Assembly: GCA_951406725.2 (NCBI GenBank)
Contig: OX597818.1
Location: 106,640,001-106,704,000, forward strand
From: Octopus vulgaris
Taxonomy: Eukaryota
DNA: 64,000 nucleotides
Direction: 5' to 3'
Positions 21,394 to 49,800 of the stretch are shown here, one piece after another. The position numbers and the translations under genes are program-made. The first letter of the stretch is position 1. Each line of letters starts with the position of its first letter. A model generated the notes under the pieces. That model made no database searches. It was not told the origin of the DNA and saw only the letters and a list, made by a program, of their open reading frames with translations.

Positions 21394-22985
21394 ATGGCCA
21401 CACTAGTCTGTAAAAGATATAGGCATGGCAGGATCATTAAACACGTTGTAAACGATATCTATCCAGAACCACGGCGTGGATTTCGCTCTGGTCTTGGCAC
21501 TATTGATATCATTTTTCCTTCAGATGGGTTATGGAGAAGGTACGTGAGAAAAATCAAGAGTTTTATCTTGATATTTGTTGACCTTACTAAGGCCTTTGAC
21601 ACTGTTAACCGACCAGCAGTTGGGAAAGTTCTGAAAAAGCTTGGTATATCTGACAAGATGTTGAATGTTATCATCTCCTTTCATGTAGGAATGAAGGCTG
21701 CTGTCGTGTCCGGTGGTGAATCTTTAGCTTCCTTCGACGTTACAAATGGCACAAAGGAAAGTTGTGTTATGGCCCCTGTTTTGTTTGCACTCTTCAATGA
21801 TGCTGCGGTATGCGTTTGGCGACATACAAAGTGGTGTCAAATTCCAGTTTTGAACAAGTGGTGGACTATTCAATCATCACCGTTTCAAAGCAAGAACACT
21901 ACCATTCACCAGTATCATTCCTGATATACTTTTTGCAGATGATGCTGCACTAGTAGCGACCTCTTTAGAGGAATCTCAGGAATTTCTAGACCGGTTTTTC
22001 TGCTGCATGAAAAGCCTTTGGTTTGACCATCAGCATAAAAGAAGACGGAAGTAATCCACCAACTTTGCCCTACTCCGAAACAAATTCGAGGCGTCAAGCA
22101 GAGGCCACCGGTTCACAATTTTCCTGACACTCCAACACAGGATGATGGGAAAAACCTAAATCATGTGAAGTCTTTTACATATTTTGGTAGTAAAGTGAAT
22201 TTGAGCGCTTCTCTTGATAATGAAAACGTCAACCGCCTTGCAAAGGTAAACTCCGCTTCTGGTAAACTCCGTCATCGCCTAGGGAATGAAAGGGGCATCA
22301 AATTTTACACCAAAGAGCAGGTCTATAAAGCTGCCATTCTTACTACTCTCTTGTATGGCTCAGAATCGTGGATACCCTATAGACGACACATAAACCAACA
22401 AGACATCTTCCCCAAAAACTGTCTGAGGATAATCTATGGTTATTCACTAAAAGACAGAGTTTCTAATGCCGACTTGTTTAGCAAGTTTAAGATTGGTGGA
22501 ATTGAGAGCTTCCTTATACAATCACAATTGTGCTGAGCTGGCCATGTTGTCAGAATGAGTGACGAAAGACTACCCAAAGTCCTCATGTACAGCCAGCTTG
22601 AGAGTGGACACAGGAATGTTGGTCGACCATGGCTCAGATATAAGGACAAGCTGATTAGTAACCTCTTAGTGATGAAGACAGCTCACGATACCTTTGAACG
22701 AACAGCATTGGTACGAACAAAATGGAGATCTCTGTGTCAAAATGGTATTAAAAACTTTGTTGCTCCCAGCATGAACAGGCTTCGGAGTGCAAGGCAAAGG
22801 AGGAAAACGGCTGCAAATATACCACTTACATTGACCTGTAATCCTCAAACTTGCAACATTTGTGGCCTTCTTTGCAAAGCGTTGGCAGGTTTAAATGTCA
22901 CATTCAACATTAGCATTATGGCTGACAAAGTAAGAGTATTTTGTCGGAGCCTCATGTGTCGACACCGACGGGAGAGTCCATCATA
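21394..22985 (+). mobile_element. RTE (BovB-like) LINE fragment
   Basis: Encodes FVDLTKAFDTVNR, MAPVLF, FADD, LLYGSESW, RLPK and a C-terminal CxxC. Confidence 0.85.
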
Positions 22986-23152
22986 TATATATATATATGA
23001 TGGACTCTCCCGTTGGTTTCGACATATGAGGCTCCAATGATGTACTCTTACTTTATATATATAAAGTAAAGGCTATTTGCCAACATAATGTCGCTATTCT
23101 ATATTTCTAATTTTGCGCATGTGCATTGTTTGTTTTTGATTTTGTTGACTAC

Positions 23153-23908
23153 ACAGTATGGTAGGGTCATGTGGGCACCTTCTGTGAGAAAACCAGCACT
23201 ATGATGCTGTTCACACTGCCAGAAATTTGGAAACGACATGCTGTACTGCTCGGCATTTTCGCCAGAAGCTCCAATACGAACAGATGGTGAACACACAAAA
23301 CACCTGTTGGCTTGTCTTGTCCCCAAAACGTGATAAGAATCGAACAACCGATCAACATCATGGTGTTTGGATTGATCACAAGTGATCCATTCTTCTTTCC
23401 ACACGGCCTCAGACTCAACACGGAGGCCTACATCAAGTGCCTGGAGGAGGTAGTGCTGCCCTGGGTCAAGTGGGTGGTTGCTGAAAGACCCTTTATCTAG
23501 CAACAGGACTCTGCACCATTCCACACAAGCAGGGGAACCCAGTCATGGCTGTCAAACAATTTCTGCGATTATATCAGCCCTAAATCCCCAGAGTGCAACC
23601 CCCTTGATTATTATGTGTGGGGTGCAATGAGTGAGACACCAACAAAATTCCTTGTAACACCAAAGAGGAATTGAAGGCAAGGATTATGGCAGCATTCACT
23701 AACTTAAACAAGGAGACCATCCAGAAAAATTGCAGGAGATTCCAAAGTGGTCTGGGAACCGTGATTGAAGCCAATGGCGATTTTATTGAATAAATTTACT
23801 CTTTTGTATTTCAAGATATTTTTATGTAATTTTGGTAAATATATCCGTTAAAATGAGATGTCAGTGTTATTTTCATTTTTGCGTAATTTAGACGACAATA
23901 TATTCACT
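23153..23908 (+). mobile_element. Decayed Tc1/mariner-superfamily transposon
   Basis: Encodes MVFGLITSD, QQDSAPFH and ECNPLDYYVWG remnants. Confidence 0.75.
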
Positions 23909-23972
23909 GCACTCTGTCTATGTAACACTTGGATTCGATCCCATGTTTTGCCATATAGAAATCACAAGTCGA

Positions 23973-24012
<40 letters not shown>

Positions 24013-24729
24013 CAGGTCTAACCTGGTGGTAACTAAGGCAGCAGGCTATTTTATAGTTTTGCCATGTCATAATGTTATATACATCTTCACATTTTATTCC
24101 TAGTTTCCCCATCTTTCGGCATCATGCCAACTACCGCCTCTTGTGTTATTTGTTCCACCTATTTATGATTTAGTGTAAATCTAAACCACCGTATCAACAA
24201 TGTTATGTATTTTTCCAGAAGAAACATAAATAAAAATATCCCGTGAACTTCTAGCTCTTGTACATTCGACATAAACTTGGCCATGAGAGAAGCAATGTTC
24301 TTCGAATGGTAGCCCAGCAACAGATAAAGTTCCAGGCATTTATTTAAAGACATGGCAAAAGCCGAGTTTTACTAGAAACACCAGACTTTTGAATACTAAA
24401 GGTATTTCTGTGTTAGATAGAATGGAGGGCATTCTGCGAATGTAAACGCATCTTCTCCCATAAAAACAACCAGAGGACAGAGGCTCGTCTAATCTAGCAA
24501 TGGAATCAATCTACAGACATTATTTTGGATCATCAAGCACCCAGAAACAGCTGTTGGACTCGTAATACTTTTCTTCAACCCCTTTTATTCTTTATATCAT
24601 TTCTGTTCTGTGTAAGTCGGACCTTTATTTTTTTTATTCAAACATAAATAAATTTCTTGTATTCCATATTTTTTAATATACTTTATATTTTGATCTGTCT
24701 AACTTACTTAGCCTTACGTTAATTTACTG

Positions 24730-24882
<153 letters not shown>

Positions 24883-25052
24883 TAAATGAAAGAATGGAGT
24901 CGAACGAAGATGTTTTCCATGCTGACGATAAACATAGGATAATTCATTCACCTACTTATATATATATATAATAGAAATATTAAAATAACTAAGTTTCTCT
25001 AAAAGAGAACAGCGGCAGCGTTCCCGGAAAATAATAGTTATCGCCATACTAC

Positions 25053-25094
25053 GCTGCATTGAAAAGGGGCAATACTCCGAAACGCGTCTGTAGC
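25053..25094 (+). ncRNA. Minimal type I hammerhead ribozyme, U3-A8 core variant (copy 1)
   Basis: GCUGCA-UUGAAAA-GGGG(CAAUA)CUCC-GAA-ACGCGU-C-UGUAGC; 6-bp stem I, palindromic stem III, GUC site at 25086-25088. Confidence 0.75.
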
Positions 25095-25414
25095 TGCCGG
25101 TCAAGTAGTGTGGAGCGACTGACCTCCCTTGTTCGAAGGTTATATGGATACAGTTTGTGTATCAAATAGCTAACTTAAGGCGATGGCCTCATGGAGCTAA
25201 TAAGCGGACAGCTTTTTTCTTATTTTTATAAGAATGCCATATTAGTATGGCGATAACTATTATTTTCCGGGAACGCTGCCGCTGTTCTCTTTTAGAGAGA
25301 CTTAGTTATTTTAATATTTCTATTATTGAAAACAAGTGGATGTATTCCACCGAAACTAGGTAAATAAAACCATCGAACAGAGATTGTCGGAAGCGACACC
25401 TACTGGCTGGCTAC

Positions 25415-25456
25415 GCTGCATTGAAAAGGGGCAATACTCCGAAACGCGTCTGTAGC
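25415..25456 (+). ncRNA. Minimal type I hammerhead ribozyme, U3-A8 core variant (copy 2)
   Basis: Identical to 25053-25094; GUC site at 25448-25450. Confidence 0.75.
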
Positions 25457-25626
25457 TGCCGGTCAAGTAGTGTGGAGCGACTGACCTCCCTTGTTCGAAG
25501 GTTATATGGATACAGTTTGTGTATCAAATAGCTAACTTAAGGCGATGGCCTCATGGAGCTAATAAGCGGACAGCTTTTTTCTTATTTTTATAAGAATGCC
25601 ATATTAGTATGGCGATAACTATTATA

Positions 25627-25666
<40 letters not shown>

Positions 25667-25733
25667 ACCTCGTGTGTAGCGTTGGCGATTTTTTTCCTCT
25701 GTTTTCCCTTCTCTTGACATTTCCTTCTCCTAT

Positions 25734-25768
25734 GTTTCCGACGAAGAGCTCCGCTCGAAACGTTAAGC
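25734..25768 (+). ncRNA. Minimal hammerhead-like motif in a pLTR-like fragment (about 25667-25870) within (TA)n
   Basis: GUUU-CCGACGA-A-GAGC(UCC)GCUC-GAA-ACGU-U-AAGC; U4C core change, ACGU palindrome as stem III. Confidence 0.55.
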
Positions 25769-25946
25769 CCTCCTTCTTTCCTTCTTTCCTGAGCATCCAA
25801 TTATACCATATTTGTTCCACGTCCTCGCGTTGTTGTGTTTTTTTGTGCTTTCTTGTTTGGATTAACTTTATATATATGTGTGTGTGTGTGTCTATGTATC
25901 TGTGTGCATTCATATAAATGTGTGTATATATATATATATATATACA

Positions 25947-25985
<39 letters not shown>

Positions 25986-26021
25986 TCATATATATATATA
26001 TACATAGCTCGATGCCTTTTA

Positions 26022-26141
26022 ATGCTTACAGCACCTAGGTTTCCCAAGCGGTCACCCATCTAAGTACTAACTAGGCTCAATGTTGCTTAACTCCGGTGAT
26101 CGGACGAGAACCGGTGCTTTCAACGTGATATGGCCGTAAGC
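26022..26141 (-). rRNA. 5S rRNA: 5S rRNA gene copy (probable dispersed pseudogene)
   Basis: GCTTACGGCCATATCACGTTGAAAGCACCGGTTCTCGTCCGATC...AGTTAAGC...GTACTTAGATGGGTGACC...GTGCTGTAAGCAT, about 120 nt; helix I GCUUAC/GUAAGC intact; no downstream T4 terminator. Confidence 0.9.
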
Positions 26142-26779
26142 TCTACCCTCCTTAATACTTTTCCCAGCTCTGAGCTCGAAAATGCAAACTTTTTAAATAA
26201 CGTCTTCATTTTCCTTTCAACGAAGCCGCTAGCCCCCACTGCCAGGTAGTAATACTTGACAGTTCATCCCTGCTCTCTGCACTGCCTGGCTGGCTGGTGC
26301 CCCATTGGTTATGCGGACAAGCGTTCCAGTTGATTTGATCAATGGAACAGCCTCCTCATGAAATTAACATGCAAGTGGCTGAGTACTCCACAGACATGCA
26401 TACCCTTAATGTAGTTCTTGTGGGGGGATTCAGCATGACACAGAAAGTATTAAGGCTGGCCCCTTTTAATTACAGGTACAACTCAGTTTTTGCCAGCTGA
26501 GTGGACTGGGATTATGTGAAATAAAGAGTCTTGCTCAAGGACACAATGCACCCCTGGGAACCGAACTCACAACCTCATGATCATGAGCCAAGTAACCCTA
26601 ACCACCCACCCATGGGCCTTTATGCCTTTTAAACCTTTTTAGACTCCATTATTATTTCAGTTGATCTTTTAAAAACTTTTAAATGCAAATCTCCTTTAAA
26701 AGTTTATCCATTTTCTAATGGTACCCCCTTATTAATGCAACCTAAACAATCCACACAGAACTATTGTCCTCAAGTAAAT

Positions 26780-27260
26780 TATTTCCCACACCAGTGACAC
26801 ATAAAAGGGCACCATTCGAATGTGACCGTTACCAGCGTCACCTTACTGGCACTTGTGCCTGTGCTAGTAGGGTGCCAAGAGCACCATCCAAGCATGATCG
26901 TTGCCAGAGCAGCCAACTGGCTTCCGTGCCAGTGGCACATAAAAGGGCACCATTCGAGCATGATCGTTACCAACGTTGCCTTACTGGCACCTGTGCCAGT
27001 GGCATGTGTAAAAAAGATTTGAGCGCGGTCATTGCCAGTATCGCCCAACTGGCCCTGTGCCAGTGGCACATAAAAAGCACCCACTACATTCTCAGAGTGG
27101 TTGGCGTTAGGAAGGGCATCCAGCTGTAGAAACTCTGCCAGATCAGATTGGAGTCTGGTGCAGCTGCTGGCTTTCCAGCCATCTGGTTCATCAGCCCTCA
27201 GTCAAAATCGTCCAACCCATGCTAGCATGGAAAGTGGACGTTAAACGATGATGATGATGA
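26780..27260 (+). mobile_element. RTE-associated 3' tail with internal ~65-bp tandem repeats and (GAT)n end
   Basis: Repeated CCAGTGGCACATAAAA units; ends GGACGTTAAACGATGATGATG. Confidence 0.7.
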
Positions 27261-28561
27261 CTACCAATCCAAGCCTACATCTTAGTACCCTTTCTGTAGC
27301 TCTTGAATTGCATTCCCTATTAAACATTTTACAGACCCTAATTGTCATTATGGCATCATATAGAATCAGCCACCTCTTCAATTGATATTATTATTGTCCC
27401 CTAACTTAATATTAACTTATTGTTTCTCATTCCAACTGATTCTCTATTTACCCCACTTCAAGTGTTCATCCCTATTATTCCTTATTTCTACTTTGACTCC
27501 TCCATATAGCCCCACTTCTCATGGTTAATTTAATTTCACTGAAACATCTTATCTCATTACAATCGTTTATAACAACTATCTTAAAAAGTTAACCAATTAT
27601 TTTCTTTCTCCCCTTTATTCTAGCCCTTGCCATTACCCCTTATGCTTCATTAAAATTATAGAGCAACAAAAACCTTCGATTTAAAAATATATAACAACTA
27701 CAATTCATTTAAATTCTCAAACAATACAAACACTTATTCTCCTGTATCAAAATATACAAATCTTTTCTAAAAACCCTTCTTCAATCCCATGAATGAATCT
27801 ATTATAACACACAAATGTAGATTGTTCCCTTCTCTTTCATTTCATTTTCTACTTTCTCTCCATTGATGGAGTAAATGTAATCACTTCCTTCTTCAGCACT
27901 CTTCTACTTGAACAATTTTTCAATAGGTTTTATTCAATTTTGTTTCAATCTTTTTTTTCTCACTTTTTTAATGATCTTCATTTTATATACTAGCCTATCA
28001 GTTATCCTCACATTATAACTCACTCACGCACACACACACATACATATATACTCGTGTGTACAAGTATATATATACACTTACACACACATACAAACATGTG
28101 TGTCTGTATGTACATAAACCAATCTTGGTTAGTCACTTCCCAAAGTATATTTGATTTCTAGAAACATTACTAAATATTATTTATAATTGGAACCTGAATT
28201 TCCTTGTCCCTATATTTGAAACCCCCACCAATACATCTTCCCCTAAACCAAATTTTTCACTTTTAAACACTTCTTACTATCAGATATAAACTTCACTTTC
28301 CTTCTTTTTCATTCTCATTCTTGTTTTACATTCTTTCTTCTATGCTTCAAACCAATATCTGATAACACACAAATAACTTTTTCCAGTTTTTAATTGCTAG
28401 GATTTTAAAAAATGTACGCTAGTGTGCAATTAGATAATGTTTACATGTTCTTTCATTATTCAAAAGGTTTTTATAATAGTTCCAGTAATAAAATTAAATC
28501 TACCTCCACCACTTTATATATTTTCTTGTTTAATTAAAATACATATATATATATATACATC

Positions 28562-29705
28562 ATGCTGGTGGCACATAAAAAGCATCCACTACACTCTTGG
28601 AGTAGTTGGCATTATAAAGGGCATCCAGCTGTAGAAACTTTGCCAGAACAGATTGGAGTCTGGTGCCTGGTTTGCCAGTCCTCAGTCAAACTGTCCGACC
28701 CATACCAGCATGGAAAGCGGACATTAAACGACAACAACGATGATATATATATATATATATATATAATCATCATCATTTAACATCTGCTTTCCATGCTGGC
28801 ATGGATTGGATGGTTTGATTGAGGACAGACAAGCCAGGAGGCTGCACCAGGCTCCAATCTATTCTGGCAAAGTTTCTACAGCTGGATGCCCTTTATAATG
28901 CCAACCACTCCAAGAGTGTAGTGGATGCTTTTTATGTGCCACCGGCATGGAAGCCAGTCAGATGACACTGGCATCAGCTATGGCTATGATCTCACTTGGC
29001 TTGACAGGTCTTCTCAAGCACATCATATCTCCAAAGGTCTCGGTTGTCCAATGCTCGAAGGTCATACTTCACCATCTCATCTCAGGTCTTCCTGGGTCCA
29101 CCTCTTCCACAGGTTCCCTGCACCATTAGGGTGTGACACTTCTTCACACAGCTGTCCTCATCCATATGCAACACGTACCATACCAGCACAGTTGTCTCTC
29201 TTGCACATCACATCTGATGCTTTTTATGTCCAACATTTTTGTCAGGGCACTCCACTCTGTCCTGTATGCACACTGACATTACACATCCAGCGAAGCATAC
29301 CAACTTCATTTCTTTCAAGCCTATGCATGTCCTTGGCAGTCACAGCCCATGTTTCACTGCCATGCAGCATGGTTGTTCACACATATGCATCATACAATCT
29401 ACCTTTCACACTGAGTGAGAGGCTCTTTGTTACCAGCAGAAGTAGGAGCTCTCTGAACTTTGCACAGGCTATTCTTATTCTAGCAGCCATGCTCACAAAG
29501 CATCCGTCCCTGCTACTGACTTGGTCACCTAGATAACAGAAGTTATCAACTACTTCTAGTTTTTCCCCCTGGCATGTGATGGAATCTGTTTTCTGTACAT
29601 CTTTGGTGTTTATTGAACTGTGCGTTTGCCACATACAAAAACTATCTTCCCAGTTAACCTTCCTTTCATATTGCTGTACCTCTTATGTGTCCATAGCTTA
29701 CACTG
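28562..29705. mobile_element. Two RTE-type copies tail-to-tail: short + tail (28562-28745) and - strand RT fragment (28770-29705)
   Basis: Minus strand encodes EVVDNFCYLGD..ARIRIACAKFRELL..VKGRLYDAYV; the two tails are mutually inverted across a (TA)n tract. Confidence 0.8.
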
Positions 29706-42984: not shown

Positions 42985-45900
42985 CGTTTCTTTATTGACC
43001 GCAGGAGCCGAACACAAAACAAATAGGGACGATACAATACAAGGGAGAAGTGGTGGGGTTGAAAAATGCCGTGTATACAATAAATAACAAAAACAATTAA
43101 CAAAACAATTAAATAATAATAATAATAGTAAGTTCCCAAAAGGGGAAAGTTCCTCACAGGGATGACCGAGGGATGACCCCCACACATTCTGGTTATCCCG
43201 ACCGCCAGATGCACATCAGAAGATGCCTCTCTCCTTCTCAAACTCCTCCGGTTTACAACCGAAAGTCCAGAGTAGGCCTATTCACACGGGCCATCCTCGC
43301 CACATTCACCCACCTTTCAACAGATTTACTGGGAAGAAGAACTTCCCTCTTTACTCTCACTTTCCTTTTCAAGTTGAACTTGAAAAAGTGGATGAGGGCT
43401 TGGTCAAAGAGGAAAGTGTCTGTCTTCAGTCCTTTCAATCTCGTCCAACATACTACCTCCTTTGCCACCAGACAGAGGAAACTGCCTTTCCTTCCCGACC
43501 AAAGGAAGGCAGTGGGGTGATCTTCACGAAGGACTCGGTTGATAACCGGATCCGCCCTACACGCTTCAGCCGCTGCTCGACAAAGCTCCACAAGTCAGTA
43601 ATGCCCGGGTACTGGTTGAGTGCATTGCAGGACGGTTTCGTCGCCCTGAGCACACCTCGCACAGGTCCGTCAGACAGCACTTCTGTGTCTGTAGTGCTTT
43701 TCTCGAACCGGCAGAGATCACCGGTAGCACTGCCAAGCCAGAGATTTCTGGAAGTTATCCATAGGCCCCGTCCCGAAATTCCTCCGGAAAAGACCAGTTA
43801 ATTGATCCCTCCCGACACTCAAAGTTTCCTCGAAGACGTCATCGCTCTTACTTTTCACTAGTCCCCTACAGAACTCCATAGTGGAAATTCCACCGACCGC
43901 GTTGCCCAATTGACAAAGAGCTGTGAGCGCTTGCCGACACTCCAGGTGCCAAGCGCCTTTTTTTAGTCTACGCTTGATTCAGAACTCGTCAGTGAGACGA
44001 GCTGCAGAAAATCCAGTGTGACAAACAGCGACCACACCTTCTCACCGCTAAGAAAGCACTGGAGATATCGCAGCCTCCGTACGTATCTGGGCATCATTAG
44101 CCACAGCATACCCAGCCCTACACTCAGCAGCTGTTGACAGCAGATGCACCATCTGGCGAGCGGAACACGTCCCTTACAAAGAAAGCGCTCCAGCTTGACC
44201 ATCCACGAAGCAGGGCCAGGGACGGTGGTCAGGTGGTAGTAAATGGAAGCGATGCACGCATTCGCCACCTCCGCCCGACCTTTCAGGGACAGCTTCCTCT
44301 CTGCTGTCACCGCTTCGTACTCCCTTAAAGTAGAGCCGATCACCTCAATTTCTGAGATGTCCGAAACTATTACGGTGATGTCGTCTGCATTTTCCGACAC
44401 GAACCTTTTGCATCCTAGATCATGCGGGATGCCCATCAGAATGTCCAACTTCCTTAGTAATGGCTCGAGAGCTAGCACATACAGGAGGAGAGAGAGTGGG
44501 CATCTTTGACGCACCGAACGAGCGATGCTAAACGATTCCGCTAGACGGCCGTTTACTTTGACCATCTAACAAATGCCGCTGTACATTGCAGTGATCCAGT
44601 CTCTGAAAACGGGACCAAAACCGGTCGCCTCGAGGACAGCTGCCAAATATTGATGGTCGACCCTGTCAAAAGCTTTCGGTTGATCCAAATCGATCAGAGC
44701 CCCACCCATGCCAGGTTCCTCCTTCTCTGTAATGTGGTGCGTGAGGTGGTGGTTGTCGTGGATAGATCTTTGCGGGAGGGCGCATATCTGCGCATCACCG
44801 ATCAGCTTATCGACGACAAGCGCCAACCTCTTGGCTAACACCTTGGCCAAAATTTTATAATCTGAGTTCAGCAGGCTTACAGCATTGGGTATTCTCCTGT
44901 TCTGCTGCCAGTTGTGGCAGAAATCCGCCAAGAGATCTCCGAACAAGTCTGGCATATGAAGATAAAGCTCGAACGAAAGACCATCCAGTCTCGGAGACTT
45001 CTCCCTTGTGCAGTTCGTCATCGCGTCCCATATGTCTTCGGTTGTTATCGGCATTTCGCAGAACTCTGCATCCCTGGATGGCGCACTATGCCGTCGATGT
45101 AAGTGCCGTCGACGTTGATGAACGTAGTGTGTCGGAAAAGTTCGGCGAAGTGCCGCTGAAACTCCGTACACATCTGCTTGTATTCGTGTTGTGTACGCCT
45201 GTCCCGTCCCGTCAAAGACCAAATTGTGGCTTTGTTTTCCACGTTGCACCCCTGCTACCAGGGCCCATGGAATGGTTTTCGTCCCGTCATGTCTCAGAGC
45301 TCGCGCCCTTGCTCTGACAACGCAACTTTCATGCTTGGCATTGAAGAATTGATCAAGAGCCAATCTAGCCGCCCGTCAGTCGCAATGTCACTCCTAAGCG
45401 CCTCATCTAACTTCCTAACCAGCTCTCCTTCTATCTTAGATTCCTCTACGGTTATTTCCTAACTAAATCCTACTGCCTCTACTCTAATAGCCCTTTTCAG
45501 TGCTATCCACTAACGGTTGTCGACGATTGCGCCCGCCAACTTCTGATGGACTAGCTTGCTAACCCGGTTTCTGAATGCTTGACGCGCTGGTAAAGACGCG
45601 TTCAGCTTATAGTACCCGGGGCCCTGCCTGAGGATCTTATCTAGGTCGACCGTGCAGATCACAAATTTGTGGTCTGTATAGCCGACAACTTTGAACTGTG
45701 TCAACCTATGCTACTTCTGTCTACTGGCCCACAGATTATCCTATCTAAATACGACATGGAAGATCCGGTGTTGTTTGCCCATGTCCACATTGGCGCATTT
45801 GGGAAGTCCAGTCGGTGCCTGTCAGCCAATTAGAAACTAAGCAGGTTTGTGAGGCTTTTGCACACTCCCTCACGTATCGGCTAGATCCACCCTATCCAGG

Positions 45901-46300
45901 TGTGCGTCTAAGATGGCGTTCAAATCGCTCACTATAACTAAAAGAACGAGATGTCTCAAGAAAAAGCTCCAAGTGTCTGAAGAAATCTGATTGTCCTGCC
46001 CCAGCTGGGGCGTACACAGTGACTAGTCTGAAAGCACCACCTTCGCTGTTGTTTACATCTAGGACCACCAACTTACCTTGCGGGTCCAGGAAGATTGTCC
46101 GTACCTCAAGATCCAGGTTGTTCCTAAACAGTACTGCCACTCCGCTCCCCATTCCAGGCCGACTAAGAGATGCATAGATCACGAAATCGTCAAAAAAGGG
46201 GGCTATATCGCGTGTGTCGGAAATCCCGGTTTCGCTGACGGCTGTCACATGCATAGTTAGTGACTGAGGTCGTTGAACAGGCGACCCTGCTTCCTACTCT
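42985..46300 (-). mobile_element. Tx1/L1-clade non-LTR retrotransposon, decayed ORF2 (APE-RT-Zn finger)
   Basis: APE (AVSET, LVTVYAP, TDHK), RT (SLLNSDYKILAKVLAKRL, DQPKAFDRVDH, RQRCPLS, ADD) and FQKSLAW; ends AATAAA then (ATT)n. Confidence 0.9.
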
Positions 46301-46750
46301 TAAACACTCCAAGATGAACGGACAGAATTTGGAGAAGGCACAAAAGGGCATCTACTTACTCCTCGGGTGACGGTGGAGGTCATGTGACGAGTGGCATGCG
46401 ATGTCATTATAAATACTGTCCGTCTGCAGAGAGTACGTAGTAGGTGATCGTAGATAGTCGTGGTCTTACTTGTCTAACTAACTATACTGCCATACTGGAG
46501 TGGGTGTGATAGCAGTTGACAAAGGATTACAACAACAACAGCCGTTCAAGAATTTGGACCTGGAGATCTCCATTTCCAGCGACTTCGAAGGCCACCTCCC
46601 AGTGGTGTCGGGCGTCAACGAAGAGCCCTCCACTACAAGACGACCAAAGTTTTTTTTCCAAGGTCTGGAGTCTCCCGCCCCTAAGCTCTAGACCATCATC
46701 TGATCACCCTTACCCGTCTTGTTTCTTAACAACAACAACAACAACAACAG

Positions 46751-46811
<61 letters not shown>

Positions 46812-46812
<1 letters not shown>

Positions 46813-49800
46813 TTCATTTATTTGCCATGTGGGCAAAAGATGAGGGAGACAATACAGAGACAGAAATAAATTGTGGGGGTTTACATATAATAATGAAATG
46901 ATAAATAAAAAAATTTTAATATAAAAAAAAAGATAAAAAAGTATACAGTGGGAAAGAAAGGACATGTGCATAGCATACAGAAGTACAAAGAAAAAAAGTG
47001 GACTGGGAGAATGATAGAGATGTGGCCTTCCTGATACAGGAACGCTTCTAGGGATAATCGAAGAACCCTACCGTCTGAGATGTCCCTGAAACCCGAAGAG
47101 CAAATGTCCTCTCCAATTCCTTCTCTCCGACTCACAGGTCTACACTTAGAGAGGTACCATCTACTCTTGCCATTTTCGCAACTTTCACCCACATTTCAAT
47201 AAACTCACTCAAGGACAGTACTTCCCTCTCCACTCTCAATTTCCTTTCAGGTGAAACTTGAAGAAGCCAATGAGCCCTCTACCAAAGAGGAATGTATCTG
47301 TCCTCATGCCTTTCAGCCTTGTCCACCAAACAGCCTCTTTCGCCACAGCCACCAGGCAAAAGAAAACTGCCTTGCCTGCCCGATTTAAGGAGGGCGACGG
47401 TGCATTCTTCGCTACAGATTCGGCCGACAGACGGACCCGTCCCAGACGTGGCAGTAGCTGTTCGACATAACCCCACAAGTCAACAATGCTTGGACATTGA
47501 ACGAGGGCGTGCAGAACGGTTTCGTCACTCTGCGCGCACCTGGGACAAGTCCGTCTGACGGCGTATTCGTTCCTGTAGAGCTTGTCTCGAACCGGTAGCA
47601 CCCCCTGGTAGCACTGCCAAGCCAAGGACATCTGGAAATTACCCATGATAATTCCCGACCGGAAAATCCTCCGGAACAGACTACGCAGTTACCCTGAGAA
47701 TGTCGTCGCACTTCTCCACCTCTAATCCTCTATAAATTTCTAAAGCGAAACATCCACCGATCCCATTGCCCGACTAGTAGAGGCTTGTGGGAGTCTAACG
47801 ACATTCTAGGTACCAGGCACCCAGTCTCGGTCTTTCCTTCAACTAGGACAGCAGCTCCGTCAAGGAGACGAGCTGCGGAAACACGAGCCTCACAGACGGA
47901 GCCCACACACGCTCACCGTCCAGAAATCGTTGCAGGTGGCGTAACCTCGGCGTGTGTCTGCGCATTAGGAGCCACGGCATACCTAATCCGGCACTCAGAG
48001 GATGTTGGCAAGAGACTGACCACCTGACCATTGGAACGCGTCCCTTCCACAAGAATTCAAATAAAGAACGCTCCAACCTGGTCAAGCAGTAACCAGGACA
48101 AGGCACCACGGTCAAGGGATAACGGAGGCGATGTAAGCATTCACCACTTCTGTCCGACCTTTCAGGGACAGTTTTCTTTCAGCCCATTTCTGGGTAAGAC
48201 TAGCCACCCTATTCGCCACCTCGTCCCTGTCCTTATCGACCTGGAGGTCAGGACCAAACCATACCCCGAGCACTTTAACTGTTCCGTCGCTCCAGCGTCC
48301 GACGACACCATCCGATGGCATTGTGCTGCCTCTCCAGGAGCACAACCGCAAACCAACCGATTTGTCGGCGTTGATTTTCTCCCCTGAAACTGACTCATTT
48401 TCCTTTTGGATGGTGCTGACCGTCTCCATTTCGGAGGCGTCCGACACTATGACGCTGACATCGTCCGCATACGCTGACACTGCCCTTCCTTGACCCAGTT
48501 CGAAAGGGATGCCTCTTACTGTTCCAGCTTCTGCAACAGTGGCTCGAGTGCCAATACATATAGAAGAGGTGACAGTGGGCAGTCCTGACGGACCGAGCGT
48601 GCAATGCCAAACGGCTCCGATAGGTGGTCGTTTGCTTTGACCACTGAAAACGGGTCCGAAACCACCTGCTTTCAAGACGGCTTCCATGTAGTGATGATCG
48701 ACCCTATCGAATGCTTTTGATTGATCCAAATGGATCAGAGCACCCCCGAAGCTAGCTGTTGTCCCAGCCCTCTCTATGATGAATCGCTACCGACTACAAG
48801 CGCCAACCTTTTCGCTAACACCTAGGCCAAAATCTTAAACTCTGTGTTTAGCAGAGTTATGGACCGAAAACTCTCTAGTACGTCCTCATTGTCGGCGTCC
48901 TTCCTCAGCAGTGTCACCACACCTTGCTAACAACAGTAGGAATTCTCCTGTTCTGTTGCTAGTTACAGTAGACATCTGCTAAAAGATCGCCAAACAACAT
49001 AGAATTCGTAGGGTAGACCATCCAAACCGGGCGATCTGCGACTTGTGCAATCGCTCATCGCCTCCCGAACTTCAGCGGCTGTTATCGGCCTTTCACATAA
49101 CCTTGCGTCAACTTCCGAGAGCCGCGGCAAGCCGCCCAGGTTCGAACTAAAGTCCAGTACCATCGTCGACCCATCGCTCTCTCCAAACAGCCACGCGAAG
49201 TGCTGCTGAAAAGCCGTACACATCTGCTCTCAGTCGCGTAGCATACGCCTATCCCGATCTGTCAAAGACCAGATCGTGGTTTTGTTTCCACGTCGCGTCT
49301 CCACCGTTCGAGCCCATCGGACAGCTTTAGTTCCTTCCTGTTTGAGTGCACGGGCCTTAACTCTAACAACGCAGCCTTCGTGTTTCGCTTCGAAGAAATG
49401 ATCAAGGGTCATTCTCGCCGCTAACACATCGGTCGCAGTACCCTTAATCGCCTCTTCTAATTTGCTAACTAGCTCACCTTCTTATCTAATCCTTTCTATT
49501 CCTAACTTTTTGCTAAACGCTATCAATTCTACTCAAATAGCCCTCTTCACGGCGGCCCACCACCGGTTGTTGACGATTGCCCCCGTCAACTGCCGCTTAA
49601 CTAGTTCACTAATCCAATCTCTGTAGTCTTTGCGAGCCAAAAATACGCGTTTAACTTCCTGTAACCGGGTCCCTGTTTACGAGTCCTATCTAACTCGACT
49701 GTGCAGATCACAAACTTGCGGTCTGTGTAGCCGACAAATTTAAATTGTGGTTAGCCTACACTATCCCTATCCTCTGACCTAACAAATACTCTATCTAGAT

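Follow-up and report, generated by a model that had tools for sequence, protein, structure and literature searches.

We found that an element in the 64,000-nt stretch of Octopus vulgaris DNA analysed here (the window) is a single insertion of a young, non-coding repeat of 362 nt that is dispersed in the genome and likely represents a non-LTR retrozyme. Judging from sequence, we put at roughly 0.6 the probability of a circle-based mechanism in which a Penelope-like enzyme with reverse transcriptase (RT) and GIY-YIG domains pastes it into (TA)n tracts, a single self-cut and circularised RNA being the probable template. The argument is built on the fixed and paired 3′ ends of its insertions, on the agreement between the two arms of each insertion and on a hammerhead that covaries across relatives.

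A two-armed insertion with tandem units

The whole insertion spans positions 24968-25625 of the window (658 bp) and has two arms. The forward arm (25049-25625, plus strand) holds one full unit (25049-25410) followed by unit positions 1-215, and the inverted arm (24968-25051, minus strand, 84 bp) corresponds to unit positions 195-278 and is identical to 25243-25326 at 83 of 84 positions. A 3-nt microhomology, visible as a sequence overlap at 25049-25051, links the 5′ ends of the two arms. Their 3′ ends face outward: the inverted arm ends at 24968, at the distal fixed end of the family (E2), and the forward arm at 25625, at the proximal fixed end (E1), with CTATTAT at both. The insertion, bounded by E2 on its left side and by E1 on its right, matches the family's rule of one end of each kind, and (TA)n target tracts flank it at 24957-24967 and 25626-25666. 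The first-pass annotation had placed the element at 25049-25624; the tandem hammerhead unit does lie there, but the 84-bp inverted arm was missed and the true start is 24968. Its mismatch-free direct repeat is indeed exact, with a spacing of 362, but is 215 bp long rather than 214 (25049-25263 and 25411-25625, 0 mismatches).

Within the full unit, E1 (25263) and E2 (25326) bound a 63-nt 'tail' (25264-25326, plus strand). Immediately upstream of E1 lies a hairpin (25236-25251, plus strand; second copy at 25598-25613), a candidate recognition element for the reverse transcriptase; two other repeat families of this genome, D and E, which otherwise have no BLAST match to the unit, carry a similar GCCA...TGGC hairpin ahead of their common end. 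The predicted 362-nt monomer (25089-25450, plus strand), whose ends stem I would pair, folds at −123.9 kcal/mol (z = −7.06), and none of 100 shuffles was equally stable. Among the pairs of this fold, four diverged units showed 8 two-sided and 6 one-sided changes, with 56 pairs unchanged and 33 broken in at least one unit. The circularised unit has a GC content of 41% and a longest stop-free stretch of 55 codons on either strand, in keeping with the reported lack of a transposon-like ORF. Transcribed, the window copy would fold its inverted arm into an 84-bp hairpin, so that it is probably a poor source copy.

Inspection by eye of the 123 open frames of the window revealed no host exon. Many of its other frames resemble transposon pieces by eye, and fragmented LINE-like reading frames, again by eye, lie at ~43200-49500 on the minus strand. 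A full-length 5S rRNA copy (26023-26141, minus strand, 111.8 bits) lies 400 bp from the insertion. A Pol III promoter in the element seems unlikely by eye, as internal T runs speak against it.

A type I hammerhead with a U3-A8 core

Each copy of the 215-bp repeat opens with a type I hammerhead (25053-25094 and 25415-25456, both plus strand), assigned from sequence and from covariation across families. Stem I has 6 bp (GCUGCA/UGUAGC), the core reads UUGAAAA (25059-25065 and 25421-25427) and stem II has 4 bp (GGGG/CUCC) around the loop CAAUA and is followed by GAAA; the palindrome ACGCGU and a GUC cleavage triplet complete the motif. The GUC triplets end at 25088 and 25450, the predicted cut sites. 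In the window, TTGAAAAGGGG occurs at 25059 and 25421 only, which confirms the claimed pair of identical hammerhead motifs 362 nt apart. An Rfam cmscan of window positions 22000-29000 gave no hammerhead match at E ≤ 10, and its miRNA matches there were discarded as TA-repeat noise.

Among aligned family copies, U3 was present in 280/282 and A8 in 287/287, and the motif was intact in nearly all. Across relatives, the base changes in stems I and II compensate one another while U3-A8 is kept, and stem III takes four self-complementary forms (ACGCGT, ACATGT, ACTAGT and ACCGGT), so the proposed covariation of both stems and the stem III palindrome held. This covariation shows that the predicted ribozyme fold is kept under selection. 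In 9/9 representatives a U directly follows the 6-bp stem I, in 8/9 the last base of loop 2 is an A, and we take these two bases to form the conserved reverse Hoogsteen contact of hammerheads. Such a contact is mentioned in the accessible text of PMC6155905. The modelled hammerhead dimer had a predicted energy of −25.9 kcal/mol versus 2 × −8.8 kcal/mol.

Two earlier descriptions of this hammerhead had to be given up. It had been called minimal, whereas its 6-bp helix I and 4-bp helix II, with no extra base, give it the canonical metazoan type I architecture; in the text of PMC4209133 available to us, the minimal hammerhead of Penelope-like elements (PLEs) has a helix II of 7-8 bp, a helix I of 4-5 bp and an extra base before stem II. 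Nor is its core a novelty. According to the text available for both papers, Perreault et al. reported in 2011 that the C3-G8 to U3-A8 covariation is natural and active in vitro (PMC3088659), and Cervera and de la Pena reported U3-A8 in ~1,300 Schistosoma PLE-type motifs in 2014 (PMC4209133). The 362-nt unit carries the same covariation. The published examples, as far as those texts go, are minimal PLE motifs, mostly single, whereas here the core sits in a canonical 6-bp/4-bp type I fold in tandem units.

A young family and its relatives

A DNA search of the 2.8-Gb genome returned 1018 candidates, of which 40 were scored and gave 202 matches; among those listed, most were 98-100% identical. Two hammerhead patterns with no constraint on core positions 3, 7 and 8 found 137 + 773 = 910 exact matches genome-wide, and reversed patterns, used as controls, found 0. 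A single base of stem II separates the two patterns (G-U versus G-C), and the commoner form has the stronger stem. Young tandem arrays reach nine full units (C2:130697522-130700779). The proposal of a young, non-coding, retrozyme-like family is supported. Of the 200 hammerhead matches listed, 199 carry U3-A8, a single one combines C3 with A8 and a C3-G8 core appears in none, so UUGAAAA is the family consensus, as the proposed genome search was meant to settle. Because no C3-G8 version of the 362-nt family was seen, UUGAAAA is by this count an inherited core and not a fresh double change.

Public runs from 12 studies, filed under seven organism codes, also contain the stretch, and none of those listed is recorded as RNA. 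Of four runs whose contigs were compared, two had a 392-nt contig spanning one period; since a circle and tandem DNA would produce such a contig alike, it was set aside.

Alignable relatives of the unit share ~75-87% identity with it. At least five further U3-A8 hammerhead repeat families (B, C, D, E and G) occur in the genome (L069/L095, L101-L120, L251-L300 and L009:3120-3162). Families B and C are related to the unit but older, and they share its two ends; D, E and G cannot be aligned with the 362-nt unit, yet they retain U3-A8. The prediction that searches for CUGANGA alone would miss the element thus extends to several hammerhead families, all of which censuses restricted to that core would overlook in this genome.

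One array of the 362-nt family contains a two-ORF LINE (L031:1391-6737; G000:C1, ~162622090-162627440) with a zinc knuckle, an endonuclease and RT frame of 1140 aa and a 17-bp duplication of unit positions 341-357. Similar LINE frames interrupt family D upstream of the hammerhead at a similar GCGAC-containing site (L281, L282 and probably L264). This LINE, which we presume to be Tx1-like, is possibly a retrozyme-targeting element.

The family compares closely with known retrozymes. In the accessible text of Cervera and de la Pena 2020 (PMC7229834), metazoan non-LTR retrozymes are tandem non-coding units of 170-400 nt (350-390 in mussel) with a GC content below 45-50% and a type I hammerhead, and the 362-nt unit resembles them in unit size, low GC, canonical type I hammerhead and self-paired monomer. 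The axolotl HHR_Amex1 described there has, as here, a one-pair helix III with a palindromic tetraloop, and it cleaves better as a dimer. The differences are the U3-A8 core and the form in which the families are known, from DNA alone here and as circles there. We found tandem units, a type I hammerhead, non-coding sequence, low GC, a self-paired monomer, dispersed copies (the 910 matches) and target duplications longer than 4 bp (described below), that is, every non-LTR retrozyme feature that can be judged from sequence.

Paired 3′ ends at TA targets

To describe the insertions we assembled 160 distinct loci, of which the best DNA matches supplied 19, the two pattern lists 19 + 60 and the junction patterns 62. 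Overlapping duplicates (11 and 8) and the LINE-interrupted L031 were left out, and the sample favours copies that hold a hammerhead. Two arms with their 3′ ends outward were present at 128/160 loci, 12 of which have an off-site end. The remaining 32/160 are single-armed, and all of them end at unit positions 207-220 (E1) or 271-280 (E2). One E1 end was combined with one E2 end in 114 of the 116 two-armed loci at which both could be classified (p = 1.6e-31 against independent choice; 65/67 in a first subset). One of the two exceptions (L021, G000:C22:33390792-33394153) is an inverted duplication of the whole locus including its flanks, either a real rearrangement or an assembly artefact. At arm-to-arm junctions, overlaps of 2-4 nt were found in 36/73. 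A (TA)4 lay within 20 nt of 268/319 outer ends compared with 213/1946 background positions (11%), and target duplications of 6-13 bp were present at 4/5 hand-picked loci with a non-TA flank. Upstream, the arms extend into further copies of the 362-nt unit and not into an ORF.

This anatomy is that of PLE insertions. The accessible text of Craig et al. 2021 (PMC8557442) describes inverted 5′-truncated copies, a tail at one end only and a microsatellite bias, and that of Frangieh et al. 2024 (PMC11167929) describes a purified PLE protein that cleaves AT-rich DNA on both strands and initiates at two internal sites bounding the tail. As far as these texts go, Neptune-type EN+ PLEs share with the 362-nt family partial tandems, an inverted 5′-truncated arm, a one-ended tail, two RT starts and AT-rich or microsatellite targets; they differ in a tail of 30-40 nt versus 63 nt, and the 362-nt family has no ORF and many whole-unit repeats. 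The inverted 5′-truncated arm, the tail confined to one end (114/116) and the AT-rich microsatellite target support the Penelope link that had been claimed for the window element, and they make it very probable that the family is mobilised in a PLE-type manner.

A probable single template for both arms

We compared the two arms of each insertion at diagnostic sites. Their haplotypes agreed at 544/554 calls (118 loci), whereas shuffled pairs disagreed at 38% and 0/2000 shuffles disagreed as rarely; tandem units inside one arm agreed at 783/795 calls. Unit joints were seamless: of 291 copies that span the cut site, 1 had an indel there. Twelve private variants were present in all copies of their insertion and 7 were carried by both arms. 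Most informative private variants were confined to a single copy (175/191) or to one arm (113/120), as expected from later mutation, which is uninformative about the template. The concordance suggests one template per insertion, although it could partly stem from subfamilies active at different times or from one source array. Together with the seamless joints, it fits repeated copying of one circular RNA, and a uniform source array fits too.

If the templates were cut linear monomers, arms would be expected to stop at unit position 41. Among 95 arms whose selection did not depend on a hammerhead, first-pass stops were sevenfold enriched at unit positions 38-45 (8/441 versus 34/13508, p = 4.5e-5), and at one locus (L199/L200) the arms stop at 41 and 42. 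Genome-wide junction patterns gave 39 matches at unit positions 39-45, 36 at 51-57 and 17 at 26-32, with pattern 18-mers that match 77%, 92% and 89% of copies, respectively. By our own reading, the matches at 26-32 are mostly indels, with ~6 true junctions, and about ten junctions in the 39-45 set reach 39-40, beyond the cut. The first-pass share of junctions was 23/30 versus 20/33 (p = 0.19). Junctions thus step down past the cut site without a sharp peak. Since the sample enrichment is not specific genome-wide, we rejected the idea that run-off there proves cleavage in vivo, and a stall in the long helix at unit positions 41-63 explains the enrichment at 38-45 equally well. A second hotspot of arm 5′ ends lies at unit positions 71-90 (window 25119-25138), around a TTCGAA palindrome; at L143 and L173, both arms stop at 84.

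These data bear on the strongest alternative, that the family is a non-autonomous PLE parasite copied from uncut linear read-through of genomic arrays, with a hammerhead that is slow, protein-assisted or used elsewhere in the cycle, so that no circle is needed. At least one hammerhead was traversed by 93/140 classifiable arms, a uniform source array would also yield concordant arms, and the junction counts near the cut site (39 against 36) and their first-pass shares are compatible with read-through. In the accessible text of PMC11167929, hammerhead mutants left PLE insertion in vitro unaffected, the main substrate was RNA that had not been cut, and reads ending at the cut site were absent; in a study of Xenopus retrozymes, 1/9 dimers cleaved in vitro (bioRxiv 10.64898/2026.07.22.740005). 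Both observations weigh against a self-cut circle. By contrast, linear copying alone cannot lengthen an array, yet arrays reach nine units, and growth would need template jumps or unequal crossing-over. Junctions are also about sixfold fewer just upstream of the cut (~6 true junctions of 17 matches, against 39), the covariation indicates a ribozyme fold under selection, and coral, mussel and axolotl retrozymes of similar size accumulate as circles according to the text of PMC7229834 available to us. We regard copying from uncut read-through as the less likely account, though the best of the alternatives.

Search for an autonomous partner

The 362-nt unit has no RT and GIY-YIG ORF of its own and so is not an autonomous PLE. 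Intact, young 781-aa RT and GIY-YIG frames are present in the genome (L081-L088 and L057-L080). Their family has a U3-A8 hammerhead with an ACATGT palindrome, TA targets, its own tail of ~30-36 nt (at one end in 2/2 two-ended loci) and a cysteine linker motif like that of Neptune and Nematis, the groups to which Craig et al. assign this motif in the accessible text (PMC8557442). This PLE family has no alignable sequence in common with the 362-nt unit. In this genome, U3-A8 is thus the core of several repeat families and, judging by these frames, of an autonomous PLE. Among 30 GIY-YIG loci (150 candidates scored of 6136), we found no autonomous PLE sharing sequence with the 362-nt unit. A relaxed hammerhead pattern retrieved PLEs and more retrozyme families, none of them a PLE ending in the unit. 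Following a 30-nt contig end as a lead to such a partner gave only an older sister retrozyme family.

A PLE-like protein match lay near 8/160 loci and adjoined the unit only at L160. There (L160:2138-3900), a single E1 arm is fused through a 2-nt microhomology into the endonuclease domain of a young second PLE family (762 candidates, the top 40 at 97-100%), and the remainder of that domain is absent from 1.2 kb of the far flank. This single event is either a template switch or an insertion with a deletion. The normal 3′ end of the second PLE family is unrelated to the unit, to which 29 of its copies gave no meaningful match.

The unit might instead be the terminal repeat (pLTR) of an unsampled autonomous PLE whose copies are 5′-truncated. 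Its anatomy equals that of PLE ends as given in the available text of PMC8557442, L160 joins it to a PLE reading frame, and the search for an autonomous family covered 150 of the 6136 GIY-YIG candidates. However, the arms run upstream into more units rather than an ORF, L160 alone among the 8 loci with a nearby match adjoins the unit, and its junction breaks the endonuclease domain of a PLE whose 29 other copies lack the unit. The first-pass annotation had counted units that are only the ends of full-length Penelope copies as grounds against its reading, and across the 160 loci no PLE ORF was attached to the unit as its own gene; we consider the terminal-repeat account improbable. Less probable still is a satellite spread or lengthened at the DNA level by slippage or recombination, or an assembly artefact at TA tracts: the arrays are flanked by unstable (TA)n, the flanks of L021 form an inverted duplication and unequal crossing-over has been invoked for local growth (bioRxiv 10.64898/2026.07.22.740005), but 3′ ends that are fixed and paired, 5′ ends that vary and duplicated targets are marks of retrotransposition, the stretch recurs in the public runs of the 12 studies with their seven organism codes, and this account is largely refuted by the paired ends.

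Proposed mechanism and meaning

On our preferred reading, of a self-cut circular template, tandem copies would be transcribed, and two hammerheads would pair through the ACGCGU palindrome and excise the 362-nt monomer, which a host ligase would close into a circle. The PLE enzyme, probably a dimer, would cut both strands of a TA tract and prime cDNA synthesis at both E1 and E2 of a single RNA molecule; either cDNA could circle the RNA several times, and microhomology would join the two cDNA ends. The two-armed pattern is likely a trace of the way in which one small RNA is copied by a Penelope-type enzyme. More tentatively, and with somewhat less than even confidence, we propose that a PLE dimer holds a circular ribozyme RNA at two sites, each marked by a hairpin and separated by 63 nt, and synthesises a rolling-circle cDNA from either end of the cut TA tract, so that insertions record the step from circle to genome, of which the papers accessible to us gave no demonstration, and that a U3-A8 retrozyme lineage has radiated unseen by CUGANGA searches.

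The retrozyme class, the PLE link and the U3-A8 core are already in print. Li, Clavereau and Pollet (2026) reported that animal non-LTR retrozymes use PLE machinery (bioRxiv 10.64898/2026.07.22.740005); their evidence in Xenopus is co-occurrence and pLTR homology, whereas ours is insertion anatomy, and we found no pLTR homologue. That copies longer than one unit arise from a circular template had already been suggested in 2014 and 2020. In the retrozyme and PLE literature accessible to us, we found the one-ended tail described but no measurement of strict end pairing or arm concordance, and no description of two-armed insertions with paired fixed ends in the accessible text of PMC7229834. Among further papers listed, judged by title and the opening of the abstract, none dealt with paired ends in retrozymes. 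A literature search likewise gave no paper on an octopus hammerhead family of this type, although the supplements of PMC7229834, PMC4209133 and bioRxiv 10.64898/2026.07.22.740005 may list U3-A8 retrozymes or mollusc families.

What the 362-nt family adds is numbers on the mechanism, namely strict start-site pairing (114/116) and a shared arm haplotype. In the accessible text of Craig et al. 2021 (PMC8557442), the mechanism of tandem and inverted PLE insertions, including a circle as template, is named as an open task, and the unit offers a small RNA substrate with known starts for probing it. If our reading is true, these insertions would preserve in the genome the circle-to-genome step that others have proposed for retrozymes and for PLE tandems.
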